Positions 29,142 through 50,524 of a stretch of 64,000 bases of DNA are shown one piece after another. Numbering within the stretch: position 1 is the stretch's first letter; the number at the start of each line of letters is the position of its first letter. Source of the DNA: an uncultured Alphaproteobacteria bacterium (GTDB taxonomy: Bacteria; Pseudomonadota; Alphaproteobacteria; Methylaequorales; Methylaequoraceae). Below the pieces are notes generated by a model that saw only the letters and a program-made list of their open reading frames with translations, searched no databases and was not told the origin of the DNA. Location of the stretch: positions 273 through 64,272 of the forward strand of contig CAZAFN010000005.1 of NCBI GenBank assembly GCA_964484795.1. The letters are read 5' to 3'. Position numbers and translations under genes: made by a program.

Positions 29142-31054
29142 TCTCCGAGGTTGGACTTTTCTTTATCATTTTGTCAATGATTACATCAAGTTTAAGTTTT
29201 CTAATTCCTATACTTGGGTATAGTGAAAAATTATCGGAAAAACTTAAATTTCAAGAAAAGATTTCAGAATGCATTTTTCTTTTTACATTATTGTCCTTTA
29301 TTTGTTTGTCATATTCATTTTTAATATCAGATTTTTCATTAATTGTAATTTCAAGTAATTCTAATAGCCAGTTACCTTTAATTTATAAATTTACTGGCGT
29401 TTGGGGAAATCATGAAGGTTCAATCCTTTTATGGTTGTTGGTAATGACTTTTTTTGGATTTTTTTTCTCAAAGCATAAGATGATGGATTTGAAATTTAAG
29501 AAAGACGTACTAAAAATCCAAAGTTCACTTTGCTTTCTAGTTAGTTTGTTTGTTGTTCTAACTTCTAACCCCTTTGAAAAAAATTTTCCACCAGCAATTG
29601 AAGGTGCAGATCTTAACCCACTACTTCAAGACCCTGGTTTAGCTATTCATCCTCCTTTTTTATATTTAGGTTACGTAGGTTTTTCGATAGTTTATTCAAT
29701 CGCTCTCGGTGCTTTGTTATCCAAAAACAGAAATCTGCAATTCATTGAAATTTTAAAACCTTGGGTTTTCATTTCGTGGGTTTCATTAAATTGTGGTATT
29801 GGGCGTCGTAGTTTGGGGGGCTTCTTAGTGTTTCGCGGGGGAGGGTTTTGGTTTTGGGATCCAGTTGAAAATGCATCTCTACTTCCTTGGTTAACTTCAT
29901 CAGCGTTATTACATACAATAGTGATGGCAGAGAAGAAAAAAAAATTTCTCAATTGGACATTGATACTATCTATCATCACTTTTTTGTTAAGCCTGCTTGG
30001 AACATTTTTAGTAAGATCAGGAGTCTTGGTTTCAGTACATGCATTCGCTAATGATCCCACACGAGGGGTATTTATTCTTATTTTATTATCATTAATATCA
30101 GGGTTTGGGCTGTACTTGTTTTTAAAAAAACATCATATTTTTTCTTTAAATAATGAAATAAATTTGATCTCTAGAGAAGGGGCAATTTCTTTAAATAATA
30201 TTTTTATGCTTTCAATAAGTTTCACAATTTTGCTAGGCACTATTTATCCGTTATTTGCAAATGTGTTTTTTAATACTAAGATTTCTGTTGGAGCACCATT
30301 TTTCAATTCGGTTTTAAGTCCAATTCTAATCCCGATGGTTTTAGGCATGATATTTGGACCGTATCTCAAATGGGGGAAAGATGATATTAAAAAATTATTA
30401 AACAGACTGAAAACATTACTATTAATTTTTTTGATTCTTTCCATATTTGTGTGGTACTTAAATTATAAAGGACCGGTCATATCATTGGTTTTTTTTATTC
30501 TGGCTGTCTGGATAATTGCTAGCTCATTTTTTGAATTTTTTAATGTTTTAAATTCCAACATTAAAAAAAAAATTCCTCTTAAGGTTCTAGCTCAAATAAC
30601 AGCCCATATAGGAGTCGGTTTGCTAATGATTGGAGCAACCGGAAGCTCGATTTTGAAAGAAGAAAGAATTCAATTTCAAAATCTTGGAGAAATTGTAAAT
30701 ATAAAAAAATTTCAAGTTAAATTCCTAGGAATTAAAGATACAGAAGGCCCAAATTATCTTAGTCAAATGGGATTCTTCGAAATATCAAAAGATAATGTGA
30801 AGTTAAAAATACTTAAGCCTGAAAAAAGGTTCTATAATGCGAACAAACAAGTGACAACAGAAGCAGCTATACATTCGACAATTTTAGGGGATCTTTATAT
30901 AGCTATTGGTGACAAAAGTTCATCTACTGATTCGGATGCTTGGACCACTAGAATCTGGTTCAATCCTTTTACTATTTGGATTTGGATTGGAGTCGGTTTT
31001 TTAGTTTTTGGTGGAGGAATTTCACTAATAAATAGCTTGAAATTTAGAAAATGA
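29138..31054 (+). CDS. ccmF: Cytochrome c-type biogenesis protein CcmF (heme lyase component)
   Basis: 638 aa, polytopic. WWD-type block FRGGGFWFWDPVENASLLPWL. Confidence 0.9.
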   Translation: MISEVGLFFIILSMITSSLSFLIPILGYSEKLSEKLKFQEKISECIFLFTLLSFICLSYSFLISDFSLIVISSNSNSQLPLIYKFTGVWGNHEGSILLWLLVMTFFGFFFSKHKMMDLKFKKDVLKIQSSLCFLVSLFVVLTSNPFEKNFPPAIEGADLNPLLQDPGLAIHPPFLYLGYVGFSIVYSIALGALLSKNRNLQFIEILKPWVFISWVSLNCGIGRRSLGGFLVFRGGGFWFWDPVENASLLPWLTSSALLHTIVMAEKKKKFLNWTLILSIITFLLSLLGTFLVRSGVLVSVHAFANDPTRGVFILILLSLISGFGLYLFLKKHHIFSLNNEINLISREGAISLNNIFMLSISFTILLGTIYPLFANVFFNTKISVGAPFFNSVLSPILIPMVLGMIFGPYLKWGKDDIKKLLNRLKTLLLIFLILSIFVWYLNYKGPVISLVFFILAVWIIASSFFEFFNVLNSNIKKKIPLKVLAQITAHIGVGLLMIGATGSSILKEERIQFQNLGEIVNIKKFQVKFLGIKDTEGPNYLSQMGFFEISKDNVKLKILKPEKRFYNANKQVTTEAAIHSTILGDLYIAIGDKSSSTDSDAWTTRIWFNPFTIWIWIGVGFLVFGGGISLINSLKFRK

Positions 31055-42467: not shown

Positions 42468-43199
42468 ATGGCTTATGACTATGAAAGAAATGTCAGATCT
42501 AGAGAAACTTCCAGTGAGTTAGATTTAGGCCTTAAGGCCTATATGAGCAAGGTCTACTCTTTTATGGCAGTAGGATTGGTCTTAACTGGCGCAATTGCAC
42601 ACTTAACTGCAGCTTTAGCATTTGATTTTAATACTAATTCATATACATCCGTCGGTAATGCAATCTTCGGTTCACCACTCGGGTTTATTATAATGTTAGC
42701 ACCTTTAGGGTTCATCATTGCTTTAAATGTTGGTGTTGCCAAAATGAGAGAGTCAACTCTCCAGATTTTATTCTGGGCCTTTGCTGGAGTTATGGGTTTG
42801 TCCTTGTCATCAATATTTATTGTATACGAAATGCCCTCCATAGCGAGAGTGTTTTTTATCTCCGCTGGAACATTTGGTGCACTTAGCCTATACGGATATA
42901 CAACCAAAAAAGACCTTACAGGATGGGGATCTTTCTTGTTTATGGGTCTAATAGGTATATTAATTGCTTCAATTGTGAATATGTTTATGGCTAGTTCAGC
43001 CTTACAATTTGCAATATCAGTAATTGGTGTTCTTGTTTTTGCTGGTTTAACAGCTTACGACACGCAAAGAATAAAGGCTATGTACTATGATGGATCAGGT
43101 CAAGAAGGTAAAAAGGCAATAATGGGAGCATTGTCTCTTTATCTTGACTTTATAAATCTTTTCATAATGCTTCTTCAGCTTTTTGGTCAAAGAAGATAA
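42468..43199 (+). CDS. Bax-inhibitor-1/YccA-family membrane protein
   Basis: 7-TM. N-terminal MAYDYERNVRS and a C-terminal basic tail typical of BI-1/YccA. Confidence 0.75.
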   Translation: MAYDYERNVRSRETSSELDLGLKAYMSKVYSFMAVGLVLTGAIAHLTAALAFDFNTNSYTSVGNAIFGSPLGFIIMLAPLGFIIALNVGVAKMRESTLQILFWAFAGVMGLSLSSIFIVYEMPSIARVFFISAGTFGALSLYGYTTKKDLTGWGSFLFMGLIGILIASIVNMFMASSALQFAISVIGVLVFAGLTAYDTQRIKAMYYDGSGQEGKKAIMGALSLYLDFINLFIMLLQLFGQRR

Positions 43200-43211
43200 T
43201 TTTATCTAAGG

Positions 43212-43919
43212 TTGGTTGAATTACATATTCAACCAACCTTCGTTCATGTGAAAAAAATATTTCTTATTTTTTTTCTTACTATATTTTCAGTTAATTCATC
43301 ACCTAAATGCTTTGAGCGTTCAGATATTTTCTTCCACGTCTATAGAAATGGCAGCAAGATTGGTTACCACAAGATTAATTTCTCTAGAAATGAAGATTAC
43401 GTTAAAGCTTCAGTCGAAATAAAATTCGAAGTAACATTTTTGGGATTCGTTGTTTATGATTACTATCACAAAAATGAAGAAAATTGGCTTGATGATAGCC
43501 TAGTGAATTTAAGAACAACGACCGACAAAAATGGGGAATCATTATTTTGCAATCTCAATAAAAAAAATGATGTTTTTGTTGTTGAAGGATCAATTGGAAA
43601 TGAAGAAATTTTCAATAACATAATTCCAACAAGTTATTGGAATCATAAGTTAATAGTTGGTCGGTCTACAAAACACGTTCTAAACACTCAGGATTGTAGT
43701 TTCATTGATTTAAGCATCAAACCATTAGGTGAAAAAGAAATATATGATGTTGCACTCCTAACAAATCATTACAAGCTAACTGGAAAAGAAAGTTCTGGTG
43801 AAGCTCTTGATATTGACATCTGGTATGATCAGAATGAAAACTGGGTAAAAATGATTTTCATTAAGGATGGCAGCAAAATTGAATATTATCTAGATAGGTT
43901 TTATGAAAAAGAACAATAA
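43212..43919 (+). CDS. Hypothetical secreted protein
   Basis: N-terminal hydrophobic segment; no domain recognised. Confidence 0.45.
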   Translation: MVELHIQPTFVHVKKIFLIFFLTIFSVNSSPKCFERSDIFFHVYRNGSKIGYHKINFSRNEDYVKASVEIKFEVTFLGFVVYDYYHKNEENWLDDSLVNLRTTTDKNGESLFCNLNKKNDVFVVEGSIGNEEIFNNIIPTSYWNHKLIVGRSTKHVLNTQDCSFIDLSIKPLGEKEIYDVALLTNHYKLTGKESSGEALDIDIWYDQNENWVKMIFIKDGSKIEYYLDRFYEKEQ

Positions 43920-44664
43920 AAAAGTTGCGTGGATTACAGGAGGTGGCACCGGAATTGGCAAGGAATTAGCAAAAGTTCTTGTTAAAAACAAATGGAATGT
44001 TGTGATAAGTGGAAGAAGAATCGACAAGTTAAATCAAGTTAAAAATTTTGGCAAAAATAATATAACTTCATTAAAGTTGGATATAAGTTCTTCAACACAA
44101 TGCCAAAAAATAGTAAAAAAAATTTTTACAAAATTTGGAAAAATTGATCTAGCAATACTTAATGCTGCTGCTTACAATCCAGGGAATTTAGAATTTGGTG
44201 AGTTAAAAAAAATTAAAAATGTAATTGATGTTAATCTAACTGGTCAAATAAATTGTCTTAGTTATATCGTTCCTTATATGAAGAAAGAAAAATCTGGCCA
44301 GATTGTTTTTATTTCTTCTCCTGCAGGTTTCAGAGGATTGCCAAACGCTGGAATTTATGGAGTAACTAAATCAGCTTTAACTTTTCTAGCCGAAAGCACT
44401 CACATAGAATTGTCAAAATCAAAAATTAAAATTCAGGTCGTACATCCTGGTTTTATTAAAACACCAATGACTGATAAGAATAAATTTCCTATGCCTTTTT
44501 TAATGTCTTCTGAAGAGGCAGCTCAAAAAATATTTAACAAACTGAAATCTCCAGAATTTGAAATCTCTTTCCCTAAAAAGCTAATAATACCAATGAAGAT
44601 TCTTCAAATAATACCTTACAAACTCTATTTTTTTTTAATGAAAAATTTTGTTAAATTAATTTAA
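43903..44664 (+). CDS. Short-chain dehydrogenase/reductase (SDR)
   Basis: VAWITGGGTGIGKELA Rossmann motif and a YGVTK active-site motif (YxxxK). Confidence 0.85.
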   Translation: MKKNNKKVAWITGGGTGIGKELAKVLVKNKWNVVISGRRIDKLNQVKNFGKNNITSLKLDISSSTQCQKIVKKIFTKFGKIDLAILNAAAYNPGNLEFGELKKIKNVIDVNLTGQINCLSYIVPYMKKEKSGQIVFISSPAGFRGLPNAGIYGVTKSALTFLAESTHIELSKSKIKIQVVHPGFIKTPMTDKNKFPMPFLMSSEEAAQKIFNKLKSPEFEISFPKKLIIPMKILQIIPYKLYFFLMKNFVKLI

Positions 44665-44680
44665 TTGAAATAAAAAGTTT

Positions 44681-45208
44681 TCATTGATTAATCTTTAAGA
44701 AAGTTATTGTCACCACACCTATTTTTATTCCCCATTTCTTTACATCTGCTCTATTAATCAAAATATTCCTATCTTGCAAAAACATCCAATCATCAAAATC
44801 TACCGTAACGGTTGAGTTTTTAACTTTTAAATTCAATTTGTAAGTCCAATTCAAAGCATTGCCAACTGCTTTTCCCTTCGCTTCTCCAATCACATCATCA
44901 GCACTGCCAAGATATTTTTTTTCACCCAATATTTTTATTTTCCAAATTCTTTGTTCTTGCTCACCATCATCATATAAAAACTTCTCATTAAGAACTAACG
45001 TGTCTCCATCTTTTTTTCCATCAATATCTACGCTAAATGATCTTTGCAGATTTCCAAATCGGTCATGAAACAACCCCCAAGCCTCAACCTTACCAGAAAA
45101 ATAATCCTCTAATATTAGTTCGGGATTATTATTTTTAAACTTATCTATATCCATATTTGTCGAACATGAAACAACAAAAAACAAAGTAATTACTCTAATT
45201 AGTTGCAT
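44681..45208 (-). CDS. DUF3833-family lipoprotein
   Basis: Lipobox VVSCS and the DUF3833 blocks LEDYFSGKVEAWGLFHDRFGNLQRSF...W.Y.L. Confidence 0.6.
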   Translation of the reverse strand: MQLIRVITLFFVVSCSTNMDIDKFKNNNPELILEDYFSGKVEAWGLFHDRFGNLQRSFSVDIDGKKDGDTLVLNEKFLYDDGEQEQRIWKIKILGEKKYLGSADDVIGEAKGKAVGNALNWTYKLNLKVKNSTVTVDFDDWMFLQDRNILINRADVKKWGIKIGVVTITFLKINQ

Positions 45209-45235
45209 ACTAAATATATGGTACCAGATTCAGAA

Positions 45236-46525
45236 CTATCCATAAATTTTTTTCTGAATTTTTACCTGCTCATTTTGGTTGGATTTAAAATTTATCAGCA
45301 AAAAACCTGAAATTAATTTAAGTAGAACTGGAAGAAAAGCATATGAAAAAAATATAAATCTTTTGCTTTCATTATTTATTGCTTGATTTGTGTCAAAGTC
45401 TAGAATGCCAAGAACTCCAAACACAAATAAACTCATCAAAGCAAAAGAAATTTTATTGATAAAAGTAATAAAAGAAAATAACAACCCAGAAATATCTTCT
45501 TTAAATTTATATTTGTGGATATCCGTTATATCAGCCTGAATGGATGGAGGAATAATTAAATCTGCCCCTAGGCAAAAACCTGTAAGACAAGATATAATTA
45601 TAAAACAAAATAAGTCGCCACTATCTAAAAATAAGACAAACACAAAAAATAATGATGAAAGGGAAAGTGAGACTGCCCAGGTATGGTTTTTGTTTATTTT
45701 TTTACTTAATAAAGTCCAGAATGGTATTCCTAAAATTGCAAAGAGGAAATAAAAAAACAAAACTCTCTGTCTATCAAAATCATTACCCCCGAGAACGTAC
45801 GTGACAAAAAAGGCAAACAAGATCATTGGAAGTACATTTGCCAAACTATTAATTAAAAAAATTGCCATCAATCTGATTAAAGATTTATTTTTCTTTAAGT
45901 TTCTCAATGTTAAAAAAAAATTTTTATTTTCTTTTTTTTGTGTATTTTCAGTTGGCACAAAAAAGCAAATCAATAAAATCCCAATGAACCCAGAAAGAAC
46001 TGCAACATACACCAAATATTCTGCTAATTCTCCACTATTAAATTCAAATATCATTGGCAATCCCAAAGAAAAAAATAGACCCAGTAAAATGAAAAACTCA
46101 CGAGACGCACTAAGCTTCGTTCTTAAAAAATAATTCCTTTCTAGGTCATAACCAATTGAAAGATATGGTATTTGGAACATTGTCCAGCCCAAATACAACA
46201 AACCAACCCAAATCAACAAATAATGCTCATACGGGATGAATTCTAAAACAAAAAGTTTTTTCAACGCAAAGCCAGAAATTAATCCACCAAATATAAGCCA
46301 GTATTTTCTAGAAAAAAATGATTTATCATTTACCCACCCCATTATTGGATCAGAGACTATATCAATAAGTTTTGCTAAAAAAAGGTAGATGCCAATATCA
46401 GAAAGATCATAACCATATTTTTCTGAATAAAGTGCTGGCAAAATAATCATTACAGGAAAAGTGGGGATGGCAAATGCAAATGCTGGAGAAGCATACAGAA
46501 TGTTTCTAAGAGTAATATTAGTCAA
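45236..46525 (-). CDS. MFS transporter (GPH/sugar-cation symporter-like)
   Basis: 12-TM with D-P motifs (LIDIVSDPIMGWVNDK). Confidence 0.65.
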   Translation of the reverse strand: MTNITLRNILYASPAFAFAIPTFPVMIILPALYSEKYGYDLSDIGIYLFLAKLIDIVSDPIMGWVNDKSFFSRKYWLIFGGLISGFALKKLFVLEFIPYEHYLLIWVGLLYLGWTMFQIPYLSIGYDLERNYFLRTKLSASREFFILLGLFFSLGLPMIFEFNSGELAEYLVYVAVLSGFIGILLICFFVPTENTQKKENKNFFLTLRNLKKNKSLIRLMAIFLINSLANVLPMILFAFFVTYVLGGNDFDRQRVLFFYFLFAILGIPFWTLLSKKINKNHTWAVSLSLSSLFFVFVLFLDSGDLFCFIIISCLTGFCLGADLIIPPSIQADITDIHKYKFKEDISGLLFSFITFINKISFALMSLFVFGVLGILDFDTNQAINNESKRFIFFSYAFLPVLLKLISGFLLINFKSNQNEQVKIQKKIYG

Positions 46526-46526
46526 T

Positions 46527-47711
46527 TCAAACTTTCTTTATCAAGAATTGACCAACATTAATATTCCCAGATCTAAAGCCCCCTTCACAATATCCTAAAT
46601 AATATTTCCACATTCGCTTAAATGTATTATCAAATCCCATCTGTTTGATTTTTTCCCATGAACCTTCAAATGAATTCATCCAATGTTTAAGGGTCTTCGC
46701 ATAATGATGCCCAAACATTATTTGTTCCTGAATTGTTAGGCCACTGGAAAAAGCTACTTTCCTCATTTCCTCCACAGAAGGCAACATACCTCCAGGAAAA
46801 ATGTAAGTCTGAATGAAATCTGGAAATCTTCTATAGCTTCTGTAAAAATTGTTTTCAATTGTTATTGTTTGAAGTCCAATGCATCCATTGTGTTTTAAAT
46901 TTTTTTTTAAAGTATTAAAATAAATTGGCCAATACTTCTCACCCACAGCCTCAAACATTTCTATAGAAACTATTTTGTCATAAAAACCTTTTATATCTCT
47001 GTAATCTTTCAATTTAATGTTTATTTTGTCATTTAATTTTTCTTCAAAAACTCTTTTTTTCACTGATTCGTATTGTTTTTTCGAAATAGTAATGGCTGTC
47101 ACTTTGGCTGAAAGATTCTTTGCCAAAAAAATTGAAAAACCGCCCCATCCACAACCAATTTCAAGCACTTCATCATTTTGTTTGATTTGGCACATTCTAA
47201 TTAAATTTTTATATTTATTAATTTGAGCATCATAAAGATCTTCCATACCACTGTTAAACAATGCAGATGAATAGGTCATTGATTTATCCAACCAATATTT
47301 GTAGAAATTATTGCCTAAGTCGTAGTGCATACTTATATTTTTGCGTGACCCAGATTTAGTATTTCTATTAAAGTAATGTTTCAATCTTAGAAACAAAATA
47401 ATGTACCATTTACCACGAATAAATTTTGAGAATTCATGGAAATTTTTGGCACCCCATTCTAAAAAATCACTTAGACTGGATGTATCCCAATTTTCATCAA
47501 TGTAACTTTCTGCCCAACCTAGATCACCTTTTAGAAAAAAATCGTCTAAACATTTCATATTTTTTATTGAAATTTCAGCATTTGGTCCCGGATTATTAGC
47601 TTCAAAAAAAAAAACTTTTTTTTTCTTGTTGTAAACAGAAATCTTTCCGTATTTGCTTTGTGACAAAACACTATAAAAAAGTTCTAATTTTTTTTTTAGC
47701 TCTTTATTCAT
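46527..47711 (-). CDS. Cyclopropane-fatty-acyl-phospholipid synthase-family SAM methyltransferase
   Basis: VLEIGCGWGGFSIFLAKNL SAM motif within CFA-synthase-like blocks. Confidence 0.8.
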   Translation of the reverse strand: MNKELKKKLELFYSVLSQSKYGKISVYNKKKKVFFFEANNPGPNAEISIKNMKCLDDFFLKGDLGWAESYIDENWDTSSLSDFLEWGAKNFHEFSKFIRGKWYIILFLRLKHYFNRNTKSGSRKNISMHYDLGNNFYKYWLDKSMTYSSALFNSGMEDLYDAQINKYKNLIRMCQIKQNDEVLEIGCGWGGFSIFLAKNLSAKVTAITISKKQYESVKKRVFEEKLNDKINIKLKDYRDIKGFYDKIVSIEMFEAVGEKYWPIYFNTLKKNLKHNGCIGLQTITIENNFYRSYRRFPDFIQTYIFPGGMLPSVEEMRKVAFSSGLTIQEQIMFGHHYAKTLKHWMNSFEGSWEKIKQMGFDNTFKRMWKYYLGYCEGGFRSGNINVGQFLIKKV

Positions 47712-47713
47712 GA

Positions 47714-48475
47714 TTATTTAACAGAAGAAAAAAAGTCGTCAGGTTTTTTTGGTTTCTTTATATATATTGCGCCTTTAAAAAACAATTTCAATGCCTGGAT
47801 GTAAATGCCTAAAGTTACCTGAAGATTTTGGAAGATTCTACCAAAAAGAACCTTTAGCAAATTAATTTCGCTCATCTGCCTTGACCTACCAGAAAATGAT
47901 GCTTCAAAAATCTTTTGGTTATTTACTTCATAAAATATAAAAAAGTTTAACAAATTATTGTCAATGCTAAATTTTATCTTATAACTCCCTTTAACTTTAA
48001 AAAATGGTGATACGTAAAATTTTTTTTTAATATTGAAAAATTTTTCATTCCTAACTTTACAAATGTAAGCGTGCCTTTCATTAAATGTGTTGCTCACTTC
48101 GAAAATTATTACCTTTGCATTTTTTTTTTTATCATAACAAACAAAAATTGATATTGGATTAAAAACGTAACCTAAAATTCTTGGCAAGCAAAAAGCTTTA
48201 ATGGATTTAATGTTATAAATTGAATTTTTTTTTAATTTTTTTTGCAAATATTCATAAAGACTCACTTTTTTTTCATTAACTGAACCATGATCATTATCAC
48301 AAAATGTAAAGAAAGAAATTTTATTCCTTCTAAATGTTAAAAAATTTCCAAAATTACAAATGTCAAACCAAAAATAAGTCAACTTGTATTTAAAATTATG
48401 ATTAAATGGTTTAAACCTTGAATGTTTCACTATTCCTTCATACAAGGCATCTTTTGTAAAATTTATTTTAACCAT
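47714..48475 (-). CDS. DUF1365-family protein
   Basis: ALYEGIVKHSRFKPFNHNFKYKLTYFWFDI matches the DUF1365 N-terminus (LY.G.V.H.R..P..H.F.Y...). Confidence 0.7.
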   Translation of the reverse strand: MVKINFTKDALYEGIVKHSRFKPFNHNFKYKLTYFWFDICNFGNFLTFRRNKISFFTFCDNDHGSVNEKKVSLYEYLQKKLKKNSIYNIKSIKAFCLPRILGYVFNPISIFVCYDKKKNAKVIIFEVSNTFNERHAYICKVRNEKFFNIKKKFYVSPFFKVKGSYKIKFSIDNNLLNFFIFYEVNNQKIFEASFSGRSRQMSEINLLKVLFGRIFQNLQVTLGIYIQALKLFFKGAIYIKKPKKPDDFFSSVK

Positions 48476-49710
48476 TCTCTTCTCATTCCTGACATTTTCT
48501 CAGCAACATTTAGTCCTGATTTTATTCCATCTTCGTGAAATCCATACCCTAAATATGCACCGCAGAACCAAGTTTTATTTTCTCCTTGAATTAATTTAAT
48601 ATCTTTTTGTGCCTCAAAAGTTTCACAATTAAAAATAGGGTGCTCATAATGTATAATCTTATAGGTTTTATCTTTTTTAGGTTCTTGACTTGGGTTTAGT
48701 GTTACAAAAATATTTCTACTTGTTTCTAGTTTTTGAAGTTGGTTCATCCAATATGTAACAGAAATTTCATTCTTTCCATTTTCCAAATAATTCCAACTCG
48801 ACCAAACCTTTTTTAATTTTGGCATTAATGATTCATCAAAATGTAAAAAAACTTTATTCTTTTTATATTGTATTTTAGAAAAAATTTTTCTTTCATTCGA
48901 TGCCATATTTTCTAGTATATTTTTAATTTGATCGGCATGAACAGCCAATACCACATAATCATATTTTATTATCTTTTTGTCAATTTTTATCTCCACATAT
49001 TTACCATTTCTTCTTACAACCTTAACATTACAATTTTTTATGGGATTTATATTCTTACATCTAATTATTTTTTCTACGTAATTTCTACTTCCACCAAGAA
49101 CAGTCCTCCATTTTGGTCTGTCAAAAAATTTTAATAAACCATGATTTGAGAAAAAATCCACAAACTCTCTCAATGGATATTTTTTAATATCTTTCAATGA
49201 TGACGACCAGATACTTGAAGCCATTGGATAAATATGGTTGTACTTAAAAAAATCTGAGTAATTTTTCTTGTGCAGATATTCATCAATAGTGGAAAAAGAG
49301 AAATTTTCTTTATCCAACTCGACACTTTTATAAAATCTAACTATTTCAAATAACATCTTAATGAATTTGAGATTTAAAAAATTTGATTTCTGGCCAAAAA
49401 TAGATGACATATTTGATCCTCCATATTCCAGAGCACCTTTATCTTTAGAAAATGCAAATGACATATCACTTTCATAAGATTCTACATTTAGACTTTTAAA
49501 CAAATTACACAGATTTGGATAATTAATTTCATTGAATACTATGAAACCTGTATCAACGGATATATCCATTTCATTAACTTTGATTTTTTCCGTGTTGGAA
49601 TGACCACCAAAGTATGAGTTTTTTTCAAAGAGATCAACTTTGTGACCCTTTGAAAGCAACCATGCACAAGATAATCCTGAAATCCCACTGCCAATAACAG
49701 CTATTCTCAT
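48463..49710 (-). CDS. NAD(P)/FAD-dependent oxidoreductase (amine-oxidase-like)
   Basis: MRIAVIGSGISGLSCAWLL dinucleotide-binding motif. First gene of the operon. Confidence 0.8.
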   Translation of the reverse strand: MRIAVIGSGISGLSCAWLLSKGHKVDLFEKNSYFGGHSNTEKIKVNEMDISVDTGFIVFNEINYPNLCNLFKSLNVESYESDMSFAFSKDKGALEYGGSNMSSIFGQKSNFLNLKFIKMLFEIVRFYKSVELDKENFSFSTIDEYLHKKNYSDFFKYNHIYPMASSIWSSSLKDIKKYPLREFVDFFSNHGLLKFFDRPKWRTVLGGSRNYVEKIIRCKNINPIKNCNVKVVRRNGKYVEIKIDKKIIKYDYVVLAVHADQIKNILENMASNERKIFSKIQYKKNKVFLHFDESLMPKLKKVWSSWNYLENGKNEISVTYWMNQLQKLETSRNIFVTLNPSQEPKKDKTYKIIHYEHPIFNCETFEAQKDIKLIQGENKTWFCGAYLGYGFHEDGIKSGLNVAEKMSGMRREWLK

Positions 49711-49901
49711 TTTTTTAATAAAACATAATATTAGAAATTAAAAAAAAAAAGAAAAAAAAATCAATATATTGTTTGACTTATATAAAAAATCACTATATAT
49801 TGATACTGGGCTAGTATGATTATAACAAAACTTTGTGCAATAACATTCTCCTCAATTTTTTTGTTACTACTAGTTTCAAGTCTATTTTAATTTCCTCCAA
49901 T

Positions 49902-49930
49902 AAAACCCTGGTTCTGCCAGGGTTTTATTG
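49902..49930. terminator. Bidirectional intrinsic terminator (9-bp perfect stem, 5-nt loop, T/A runs on both sides)
   Basis: aaaaCCCTGGttctgCCAGGGtttt: the 49902-49911 stem, ttctg loop, 49917-49926 stem, then tattgtt. It lies downstream of the minus-strand gene(s) 49975..50524. Confidence 0.7.
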
Positions 49931-49974
49931 TTAAATCTAAATTGTAGTCTTATTTTGCTGTTATATTGGGAAGT

Positions 49975-50244
49975 TTATGGTTTTCTGTAGATTGTTAACC
50001 AGTTTGATGAGAGCAATTGATGGTCCAGTGACTCAACATTGTCATAACCGGAAAGCTCAGAAGTATTGTAATTGTTCAAGTTTTTACGAAACGAGTGATC
50101 GTAATTTCTTCTAATTCTATCAAACCTTATGTTATGTATTAGATTCAACATCAAGATACTTAACGACTCATTAGAAATTTGTTTAATTCTATTCTCTGAT
50201 AAAGTGCCTTCTAAACTCACAAACTGCTGAAAAATAAGGATCAC
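49975..50244 (-). CDS. Doubtful small ORF (GTG start) overlapping the 3' end of 50189..50524
   Basis: It has only a GTG start, no SD and no domain, and overlaps the upstream gene by 56 nt. Without it there would be an unusually long (~260 nt) 3' UTR. Confidence 0.2.
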   Translation of the reverse strand: MILIFQQFVSLEGTLSENRIKQISNESLSILMLNLIHNIRFDRIRRNYDHSFRKNLNNYNTSELSGYDNVESLDHQLLSSNWLTIYRKP

Positions 50245-50524
50245 CAGGTCTTGGTTCTGTAATCATAACTTCTCTATTTAAAGCACATGACTCTGCAATC
50301 AAGGTATTGAGCAAATGTCCTGCATTAGCATATGATGTATGAATAGCAAGAAAGAAATTATCAGAATTCCTACACTTCTTTAATTGTTTTTGTAATTCTC
50401 CTGGAGACATTTCTTTATTATATATCACTTTGCACCAATTGGCTGAATAACTGAAATTAAAGGTAAAAACTGTTAAAAAAAATAAAATCAACTTAATATT
50501 TTTCTTCATATGAAAATTCTCCAA
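50189..50524 (-). CDS. Hypothetical secreted protein
   Basis: Signal peptide KKNIKLILFFLTVFTFNFSYSA, several Cys; no domain recognised. Start may be M6 at 50509. Confidence 0.5.
   Translation of the reverse strand: MENFHMKKNIKLILFFLTVFTFNFSYSANWCKVIYNKEMSPGELQKQLKKCRNSDNFFLAIHTSYANAGHLLNTLIAESCALNREVMITEPRPGDPYFSAVCEFRRHFIRE

Follow-up and report, generated by a model that had tools for sequence, protein, structure and literature searches.

A probable mini-gene upstream of ufaD

The DNA analyzed here is a stretch of 64,000 nucleotides (the window; contig CAZAFN010000005.1, positions 273 to 64,272) from an uncultured alphaproteobacterium. Within it, a spacer of 264 bp (49711-49974) lies upstream of ufaD, the first gene of a predicted furan-fatty-acid-type operon on the minus strand. 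The original prediction, made from these letters, saw in the spacer two related palindromes and a plus-strand promoter-like element facing about 100 nt of non-coding DNA that ends in a strong bidirectional terminator, and read the arrangement as the geometry of a small RNA (sRNA) gene. Our analysis revealed a conserved, self-contained plus-strand transcription unit, which agrees with that geometry, but the unit is not simply non-coding: the DNA downstream of the promoter holds a 24-codon open reading frame (ORF) under purifying selection. We consider it likely that this mini-gene is an unannotated small membrane-protein gene, possibly also a dual-function RNA, with a compact control region that it has in common with the divergent operon. 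The features of the unit are as follows.

49762-49771, no strand: box 1, the 10-bp palindrome CAATATATTG, found in 73/73 distinct orthologous sequences as C-W-A-T-A-T-R-T-W/G-G
49773-49778, plus strand: -35 hexamer TTGACT of the mini-gene promoter (TTGACA in 43/73, TTGACT in 30/73; TTGAC invariant)
49793-49802, plus strand: box 2, CTATATATTG, containing the -10 TATATT (49796-49801); present in 73/73
49808-49930, plus strand: predicted transcript of about 123 nt, its start placed 7 nt after the -10 and its end at the terminator
49816-49890, plus strand: 24-codon ORF, MIITKLCAITFSSIFLLLLVSSLF and stop; one Lys, then a 19-residue hydrophobic stretch (grand average of hydropathy 2.1)
49898-49930, no strand: bidirectional intrinsic-terminator hairpin CAATAAAACCCTGG/CCAGGGTTTTATTG, a 14-bp stem with A-tract and T-tract arms

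Two sets of sequences were used to examine conservation. A metagenome scan for exact matches to the invariant 26-mer AGTCTATTTTAATTTCCTCCAATAAA yielded 97 marine contigs with 73 distinct full-length elements, on which the statistics for the promoter and boxes are based. The second set consisted of 10 lineages found through UfaD alone. The UfaD-like protein has many metagenomic relatives (50-65% identity) and no close relative among species-representative genomes, in which only distant loci were found (Filomicrobium, Nevskia, Leptospira), none of them with the mini-gene element. The promoter-like site, both boxes, and the hairpin were present in all 73 orthologous sequences, and the block from box 1 to the hairpin was recognizable in all ten loci retrieved through UfaD, in which the flanking genes had diverged. 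Contigs of the same species (L005-L008) have a spacer identical to that of the window and were uninformative. Mean pairwise DNA identity among the ten lineages found through UfaD was as follows.

First 300 nt of ufaD: 62%
A-rich stretch adjoining ufaD: 57%
Box 1 plus -35: 88%
Promoter spacer: 46%
Box 2: 91%
ORF codons 2-17: 73%
Tail, 49879-49897: 99%
Hairpin loop: 43%

The tail was the best-conserved stretch measured in the region of about 630 bp that was compared. The linkage to ufaD was complete, as ufaD was divergently adjacent to the mini-gene in all 66 contigs with enough sequence. Neighbors on the PAP2 side were present in 84 of 88 contigs, and the four contigs that lack them keep ufaD and the element. 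The mini-gene occurs in one copy per locus and has no paralogue in the window, where the 26-mer is found once; a search of viral contigs with the 26-mer gave no match.

The ORF is under purifying selection as a coding sequence. For codons 2-21, a part of the ORF not covered by the 26-mer with which the sequences were collected, the column entropy at the three codon positions was 0.54/0.34/0.87 (permutation p = 0.0007). In 52 distinct gapless sequences, synonymous divergence (pS) was 0.40 and nonsynonymous divergence (pN) was 0.14, giving a pN/pS of 0.35; none of these 52 variants had a stop in the frame, and the replacements were conservative (mean BLOSUM62 +0.52; I/V/L/F, S/T, K/R). All four differences between the window and the orthologous sequence L012 were synonymous in the plus-strand frame. 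Lineages without the canonical ATG have a replacement start, ATG or GTG, in the same frame three codons farther upstream (giving 27 aa), and other starts are shifted by one codon. Gaps in the ORF alignment are three bases long, except in two copies, L074 (2795-2915) and L091 (2316-2436). Both lack the ATG and carry ORF deletions of 1 or 2 nt, with the tail and terminator intact. They look like decayed mini-genes; L074 also has a weakened -10.

The predicted peptides, of 22-28 residues across the sequences and 24 in the window, follow the pattern M-[IVY]-[IL]-T-[KR]-[FLI]-C-A-[IL]-[TS]-[FL]-S-S-[IT]-F-L-[LMFI]-L-L-[VI]-[SF]-S-L-F. This single hydrophobic helix after a basic residue fits a membrane micro-protein, and the mini-gene combines the usual marks of a small membrane protein: an ORF of fewer than 50 codons, one hydrophobic helix, and purifying selection. 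Of the marks of an sRNA gene, it has a promoter of its own and an intrinsic terminator in an intergenic region, but it is not free of coding constraint. The peptide matched nothing in Pfam and NCBIfam, even at E = 10. When a natural 50-aa read-through variant was used as the query against 5.8 billion predicted-protein clusters, no match was found, because the mini-gene is too short for gene callers. The locus is not mentioned in papers on candidate structured RNAs of Pelagibacter (PMC2704228) and on metatranscriptomic start sites (PMC5069720).

Promoter and paired boxes

The element TTGACT-N17-TATATT at 49773-49801 was found as originally described; it matches 10 of 12 consensus positions and is conserved in the 73 orthologous sequences. 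Both palindromes were likewise present and kept in the orthologous spacers (73/73), although the coordinates first given for the 14-mer were one base off and are really 49790-49803. The promoter spacer was 17 nt long in 70/73 sequences and 16 nt in 3/73, and its sequence was free. The -10 hexamer read TATATT in 60 sequences, TATGTT in 11, TATCTT in one, and TATTTT in one; variation was thus confined to position 4 of the hexamer, which is the least constrained position of a sigma70 -10 element. In the window sequence alone, the promoter and box matches were not beyond chance: the region contained 3 promoter-like sites against 5.6 expected in shuffles, and CWATATATWG matched twice against 0.43 expected, a count reached by 7/100 shuffles. 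Their significance therefore rests on the conservation across the 73 distinct orthologous sequences.

Each box is an inverted repeat of CWATA; the perfect forms CAATATATTG and CTATATATAG both occur, as do hybrids. Box 1 ends 1 bp upstream of the -35 hexamer, with its center at about -41.5 from the predicted start, and the box centers are 31 bp apart, about three helical turns. On the minus strand, box 1 reads TATATT in about 61 of the 73 sequences and TATATA or CATATT in the remainder. Position 7 varies in both boxes and the mirror position 4 never does, an asymmetry that favors -10 elements over a symmetric operator. The outer C and G of the boxes are invariant in the 73 sequences, which argues for an additional protein contact.

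Judged from this pattern of variation, box 2 behaves as the -10 of the mini-gene promoter. Box 1 most likely serves as an operator, as a weak -10 for a ufaD promoter without a -35, or as both, because the spacer contains no other conserved candidate for a ufaD promoter: the 49 bp adjoining ufaD showed 57% identity versus 62% for ufaD coding DNA, and no convincing conserved minus-strand promoter of the sigma70, sigma32, or extracytoplasmic function (ECF) type was seen by eye between the hairpin and box 2. Pairing of the two boxes as arms of one hairpin or cruciform was considered and rejected on inspection, since variation at positions 2 and 9 breaks the pairing between the boxes and each box stays self-symmetric.

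Alternatively, the boxes might be operators at which a dimeric transcription factor regulates the mini-gene as well as the ufaD operon. This proposal is compatible with the membrane-protein reading and differs from it in making the boxes primarily protein-binding sites, whose function as promoter elements would be incidental. The 10-bp CWATA inverted repeats with both perfect forms, the invariant outer C and G, which a -10 alone does not need, the distance of about three helical turns, and the absence of the motif from the rest of the 64 kb are all consistent with operators. In contrast, no regulator gene was identified in the cluster, no further copies in the window suggest a regulon, and the asymmetry between positions 7 and 4 suits a plus-strand -10 better. 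Operators as the primary identity of the boxes are possible in our judgment, though on the unlikely side.

According to the reading that we favor, the mini-gene and ufaD units would have about 60 bp in common, including the two CWATA-TATWG boxes, and RNA polymerase or a repressor at one promoter would exclude the other. Such exclusion is expected because the putative -10 elements are on opposite strands with a distance of 31 bp between them.

Predicted RNA fold, tail, and competing explanations

A near-consensus sigma70-type promoter (TTGACW-N17-TATATT) would start transcription at about 49808, and the intrinsic terminator would end the RNA at about 49930. We aligned 66 predicted transcripts, with the start set 7 nt after the -10, and obtained a consensus fold with RNAalifold, which recovered two helices unprompted (helix 1 and the terminator). 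A third, inner helix was tested from the single-sequence fold. The minimum free energy of the window RNA was -30.7 kcal/mol (z = -5.3 versus shuffles), and its minimum-energy structure is exactly the fold made of helix 1, the inner helix, and the terminator. Besides the terminator, the structural features are as follows.

49809-49816, plus strand: 5' arm of helix 1, GGCUAGUA, the G-rich leader plus the A of AUG; pairs with 49868-49875
49868-49875, plus strand: 3' arm of helix 1, UACUAGUU, within codons 18-20; pairs with 49809-49816
49823-49830, plus strand: 5' arm of the inner helix, UAACAAAA; pairs with 49859-49866
49859-49866, plus strand: 3' arm of the inner helix, UUUUGUUA; pairs with 49823-49830
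49876-49897, plus strand: single-stranded tail UCAAGUCUAUUUUAAUUUCCUC, with the last codons, the stop, and most of CCUCC; unpaired in the minimum-energy and consensus folds

The structure is supported by covariation. In helix 1, 99.4% of cells were paired and three pairs had compensatory changes, and none of 500 shuffles was as good; C-G changed to U-A in 13 sequences and G-C to A-U in 5, and the outer pair was seen as G-C, G-U, A-U, and U-A. In the inner helix, 91.5% of cells were paired and four pairs had changed on both sides, a result that topped 500/500 shuffles and all slid registers. The whole structure topped 500/500 column shuffles on every measure and 6/6 slid registers.

The strong bidirectional hairpin was borne out as well: 99.2% of the cells in its stem were paired, and five pairs had compensatory changes, the variants being CCCTGG/CCAGGG, CCCTGA/TCAGGG, CCCTAG/CTAGGG, and CCTTGTT/AACAAGG. 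It escaped a simple terminator scan, since here the T-run forms part of the paired stem. The hairpin is kept in the four contigs with plus-strand right neighbors, indicating a function for the mini-gene in addition to any for the convergent gene.

Directly 5' of the terminator, the tail runs through the final three codons, the UAA stop codon, and UUUCCUCC; the last C of its anti-Shine-Dalgarno-like CCUCC motif opens the terminator stem. Its 19-nt core (49879-49897), AGUCUAUUUUAAUUUCCUC, was the part that was 99% identical in the 10 lineages. The synonymous sites of the last three codons are frozen, which suggests that the RNA or DNA itself is under constraint in addition to the coding. The best predicted duplex partner of the tail in the window was the ccmF 3' end and the start of the next ORF (about 31011-31051, plus strand; GUGGAGGAAUUU...), with -18.7 kcal/mol against a mean of -7.9 (sd 3.2) for 70 translation-initiation regions, all taken from the window. 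A perfect 10-nt complement in the CMAS gene was rejected as a target, as it is not conserved in orthologues.

These observations suggest how the mini-gene may work. The RNA of about 123 nt would encode a membrane micro-protein of 22-28 residues. Its G-rich leader and the A of the AUG would pair with codons 18-20, sequestering the start, and the second helix would close the ORF into a hairpin; translation would therefore probably be gated by RNA structure. The near-invariance of the tail, which extends to synonymous sites, makes a second role of the RNA most likely; the tail may pair with another RNA or bind a protein, which would make the mini-gene a dual-function RNA.

Several points weigh against this reading. 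That the unit is transcribed between these ends and translated is predicted. Its signals for translation are weak, with a short leader (about 6-12 nt) and, in the window, a poor Shine-Dalgarno-like match (GGG); in about 12 sequences, the sole start codon, sometimes GUG, lies 5-7 nt after the -10 and would require leaderless initiation. The antisense frame is also open, with a pN/pS of 0.45, so that the coding signal is partly common to both strands, and this frame is excluded only through its radical replacements. The covariation counts come from related sequences, in which one inherited change is counted many times; by eye, the G-C to A-U change in helix 1 occurred in about three separate lineages. 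Box 1 is poor as a minus-strand -10 in about 12/73 sequences, the cluster lacks an identified regulator gene, and no conserved trans target of the tail was found in the 64 kb.

A purely non-coding sRNA, with an incidental ORF and conservation that comes from structure and a base-pairing seed only, would account for part of these data. The promoter-to-terminator geometry is conserved, two helices are supported by covariation, the 99% conserved CCUCC tail resembles a seed beside a terminator, the last three codons do not vary at synonymous sites, and the very short leader has a weak Shine-Dalgarno-like sequence or none. In contrast, outside the helices most of the variation falls on third codon positions, all 52 variants keep the frame open and show conservative replacements while other frames are scrambled, every sequence that lost the ATG has another start in frame, and indels are multiples of three except in the decayed L074 and L091. 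No Rfam family matched the putative sRNA. We consider this explanation unlikely.

In the Rfam search, the only match in the window at the gathering score was one tRNA, and the mini-gene was unmatched also at the E-value threshold. The best sub-threshold matches in the spacer were mir-338 (25 bits versus 57) and PsrR1 (23 bits versus 42), both largely over the hairpin. The match to PsrR1, a cyanobacterial light-stress sRNA, lies at 49852-49927 on the plus strand (E = 0.034) and is probably driven by the terminator and the U-rich stretch.

A type I toxin, that is, a hydrophobic membrane-damaging peptide silenced by a locked mRNA fold and an antisense or complementary antitoxin RNA, is very unlikely. 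In the hok, tisB, and aapA1 mRNAs, a long-range helix sequesters the translation start, with an anti-Shine-Dalgarno-like sequence downstream. The mini-gene resembles them in encoding a short peptide (about 24 residues, very hydrophobic), in its strong promoter, in the predicted helix that locks the start, and in the CCUCC of its 3' part. Unlike type I toxins, it is present in one copy per locus, is under purifying selection, and is strictly syntenic and vertically inherited across lineages with about 50% UfaD identity and small AT-rich genomes. It is absent from viral contigs, and neither an antitoxin RNA nor a conserved antisense promoter or complementary partner was evident by eye in the region.

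Least probable of all, and highly improbable, is a cis-acting 5' leader of the ufaD mRNA, in which a minus-strand transcript beginning just after the hairpin would form a long structured untranslated region or encode a leader peptide with GGAGG as the ribosome-binding site: the minus strand does offer GGAGG followed by an open 26-codon frame (0 stops in 52 variants, pN/pS 0.45) and an RNA that folds well (z = -4.8), but the replacements in this frame are radical (mean BLOSUM62 -0.44; K/I, R/M, M/T, L/S; columns such as DEFIKNSTY), which rules it out as a real gene, its low pN/pS follows from wobble positions that coincide with those of the plus-strand frame, a structured RNA can be expected to have a complement that folds well, GGAGG has no usable start codon at the proper distance, and there is no conserved minus-strand promoter between the hairpin and the ORF.

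The membrane-protein gene with a possible second role of its RNA can be compared with three further kinds of known system. Dual-function sRNAs such as SgrS/SgrT, RNAIII/delta-hemolysin, SR1/SR1P, and AzuCR likewise combine one short terminator-ended transcript with a selected small ORF and a separate conserved single-stranded segment; the mini-gene has no sequence or Rfam relationship to them, its ORF fills most of the RNA, and its conserved segment overlaps the stop codon. The small single-pass membrane modulators AcrZ, KdpF, MgtS, PmrR, and CydX share its length class and the one hydrophobic helix following a basic residue, and the mini-gene also lies near membrane and lipid-modifying genes (MFS_2 and UfaD/UfaO, with PAP2 and ArnT-like genes on the other side). 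Unlike these modulators, it is not co-transcribed with a partner, and it has no Pfam or NCBIfam similarity. The CcsR ("cuckoo") RNAs of Rhodobacter are sRNAs with CCUCCUCCC motifs; photo-oxidative stress induces them, and they are co-transcribed with a short ORF of the DUF1127 family. The resemblance here lies in an alphaproteobacterial RNA with a C/U-rich anti-Shine-Dalgarno-like motif, a small ORF, and an association with the singlet-oxygen response, whereas the mini-gene has a single CCUCC in an unpaired tail instead of repeated hairpin loops, and its peptide is unrelated to DUF1127. The mini-gene resembles all these systems in its possible working and is a member of none.

The lipid operon and its surroundings

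The genes of the divergent operon and those that converge on it are as follows.

48463-49710, minus strand: ufaD-like FAD oxidoreductase, 415 aa, first operon gene (Pfam Amino_oxidase 1.2e-18, NAD_binding_8 3.1e-15)
47714-48475, minus strand: DUF1365 protein, UfaO-like, 253 aa (Pfam DUF1365 1.2e-61)
46527-47711, minus strand: cyclopropane-fatty-acid (CFA)-synthase-like S-adenosylmethionine-dependent methyltransferase, 394 aa, RSP1089-like (Pfam CMAS 4.6e-84)
45236-46525, minus strand: MFS_2 (GPH-family) transporter, 429 aa (Pfam MFS_2 5.9e-57)
44681-45208, minus strand: DUF3833 protein, 175 aa, last gene of the minus-strand operon (Pfam DUF3833 1.9e-63)
43903-44664, plus strand: short-chain dehydrogenase/reductase (SDR), 253 aa, convergent with the operon (Pfam adh_short 4.8e-47)
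43212-43919, plus strand: DUF6134 ORF, overlapped by the SDR gene (Pfam DUF6134 5.1e-41)

The six genes from the SDR to the amine-oxidase-like gene had been grouped as one cluster. The five minus-strand genes do form one operon; they are tightly packed, overlapping or almost abutting, with DUF1365 immediately downstream of the ufaD-like gene and overlapping it by 13 nt. The SDR gene lies outside, because it is on the plus strand, convergent, and overlaps the DUF6134 ORF. It is preceded on the same strand by the DUF6134 gene and a gene for a YccA/Bax-inhibitor-like membrane protein (42468-43919), with which it is probably in an operon, and this may be its real transcriptional context.

In Rhodobacter sphaeroides, RSP1091 is UfaD and RSP1090 is UfaO, a 250-aa DUF1365 protein for O2-using furan-ring formation, while RSP1089, RSP1088, and RSP1087 are dispensable for 9M5-FuFA synthesis (PMC7380195). 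The RSP1091-1087 operon is a member of the sigmaE-ChrR core regulon (PMC6852236), and rpoE-chrR is divergent from it (PMC3546557). The match of the gene set to this operon, part of the original prediction, held in domain content, order, and protein sizes: FAD oxidoreductase, DUF1365, and CFA-synthase-like proteins follow one another in the same order, with 415/253/394 aa in the window against 430/250/402 aa in R. sphaeroides. Both loci also have a protein of about 175-186 aa and an SDR-sized protein close by, and an upstream control region common to the operon and a divergent unit. On these grounds the cluster is predicted to be an RSP1091-1087-type (ufaD/ufaO) furan-fatty-acid-type operon. 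The UfaD and UfaO assignments rest on domains, order, and sizes. Against NCBIfam, the UfaD-like protein gave weak N-terminal matches only; the CMAS protein matched cyclopropane fatty acyl phospholipid synthase (2.8e-80, under the curated cut-off) and is possibly the UfaM equivalent. The ufaD/ufaO pathway is known biology, and its occurrence in SAR11-like genomes is unsurprising. We regard the source bacterium as SAR11-like: the window DNA has 30% G+C, and its aconitase is 61-70% identical to proteins labeled "Rickettsiales bacterium" and "Candidatus Pelagibacter sp."

Unlike the R. sphaeroides operon, the one in the window has an inserted MFS_2 transporter, which holds the same position in all orthologous loci fetched, and its SDR is on the opposite strand behind the DUF6134 gene instead of being the co-transcribed last gene. 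The divergent partner is the 24-codon mini-gene in the window versus rpoE-chrR in R. sphaeroides; no rpoE-chrR divergent to ufaD is present at the locus. The sigmaE/ECF11 promoter has the form TGATCC-N16-CGTA. Searched for as TGATC or NATCC-N14-18-CGTA, it was found in only 3/73 spacers, so that no ECF11-type motif is conserved there, and the window lacks one. The expectation that the operon is an RpoE-ChrR target thus found no sign at the locus, and the analogy with R. sphaeroides appears to fail at the regulatory level. In two distant Nevskia metagenome-assembled genomes (L002 and L003), GCATCCGTAA-N12-CGTAATG lies about 40 bp upstream of the start codon of the UfaD homologue; by its resemblance to the sigmaE/ECF11 promoter, these operons may still be under sigmaE-ChrR control. 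In a near-identical contig of the same species as the window (L006, 4236-4996), an indel splits the DUF1365 gene into pieces of 121 aa and 127 aa, which is either a natural frameshift or an assembly error.

SAR11-like bacteria are reported to carry very few sigma factors. One may speculate that a dual-function gene of about 120 nt replaced sigmaE-ChrR at the furan-fatty-acid operon in these bacteria, a proposal that we regard as improbable. The micro-peptide, with its conserved intramembrane cysteine, would sense or tune lipid (photo-)oxidation, the invariant CCUCC tail would act on other mRNAs, and the mini-gene promoter would physically compete with the operon promoter. If true, one of the most abundant kinds of cell in the ocean would possess a minimal stress switch.

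This study also bears on the annotation of marine genomes. The mini-gene represents a new, unannotated family that is absent from Rfam, Pfam, and NCBIfam, is widespread among SAR11-like marine genomes, and occurs in every related marine lineage examined. Streamlined genomes keep little regulatory DNA, so an element under such strong constraint is likely important. It offers a testable handle on how abundant ocean bacteria that lack the usual sigma/anti-sigma pair at this operon may regulate a lipid pathway linked to photo-oxidative stress, and on the number of functional micro-proteins and dual-function RNAs that are absent from marine genome annotation.

Synteny was read from contigs fetched through ten UfaD relatives. 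The orthologous order is PMT_2, PAP2, an ORF of about 106 aa, an ORF of 53-89 aa, the spacer, and the genes for the UfaD-like protein, DUF1365, CMAS, and MFS_2. In the four contigs without the PAP2/PMT_2 side (L037, L041, L042, and L052, all of one lineage), plus-strand genes have taken its place. They look like radical-SAM, oxidoreductase, cupin/epimerase-like, and methyltransferase genes, resembling a glycosylation island, and the junction lies directly after the mini-gene terminator. Between PAP2 and the hairpin, the window contains two small minus-strand ORFs, 49975-50244 and 50189-50524, which overlap in different frames and have no Pfam or NCBIfam match. Orthologous loci keep both, one of about 103-110 aa with a signal-peptide-like N-terminus and one of 53-89 aa ending in ...SNWL[TS]IYRK.

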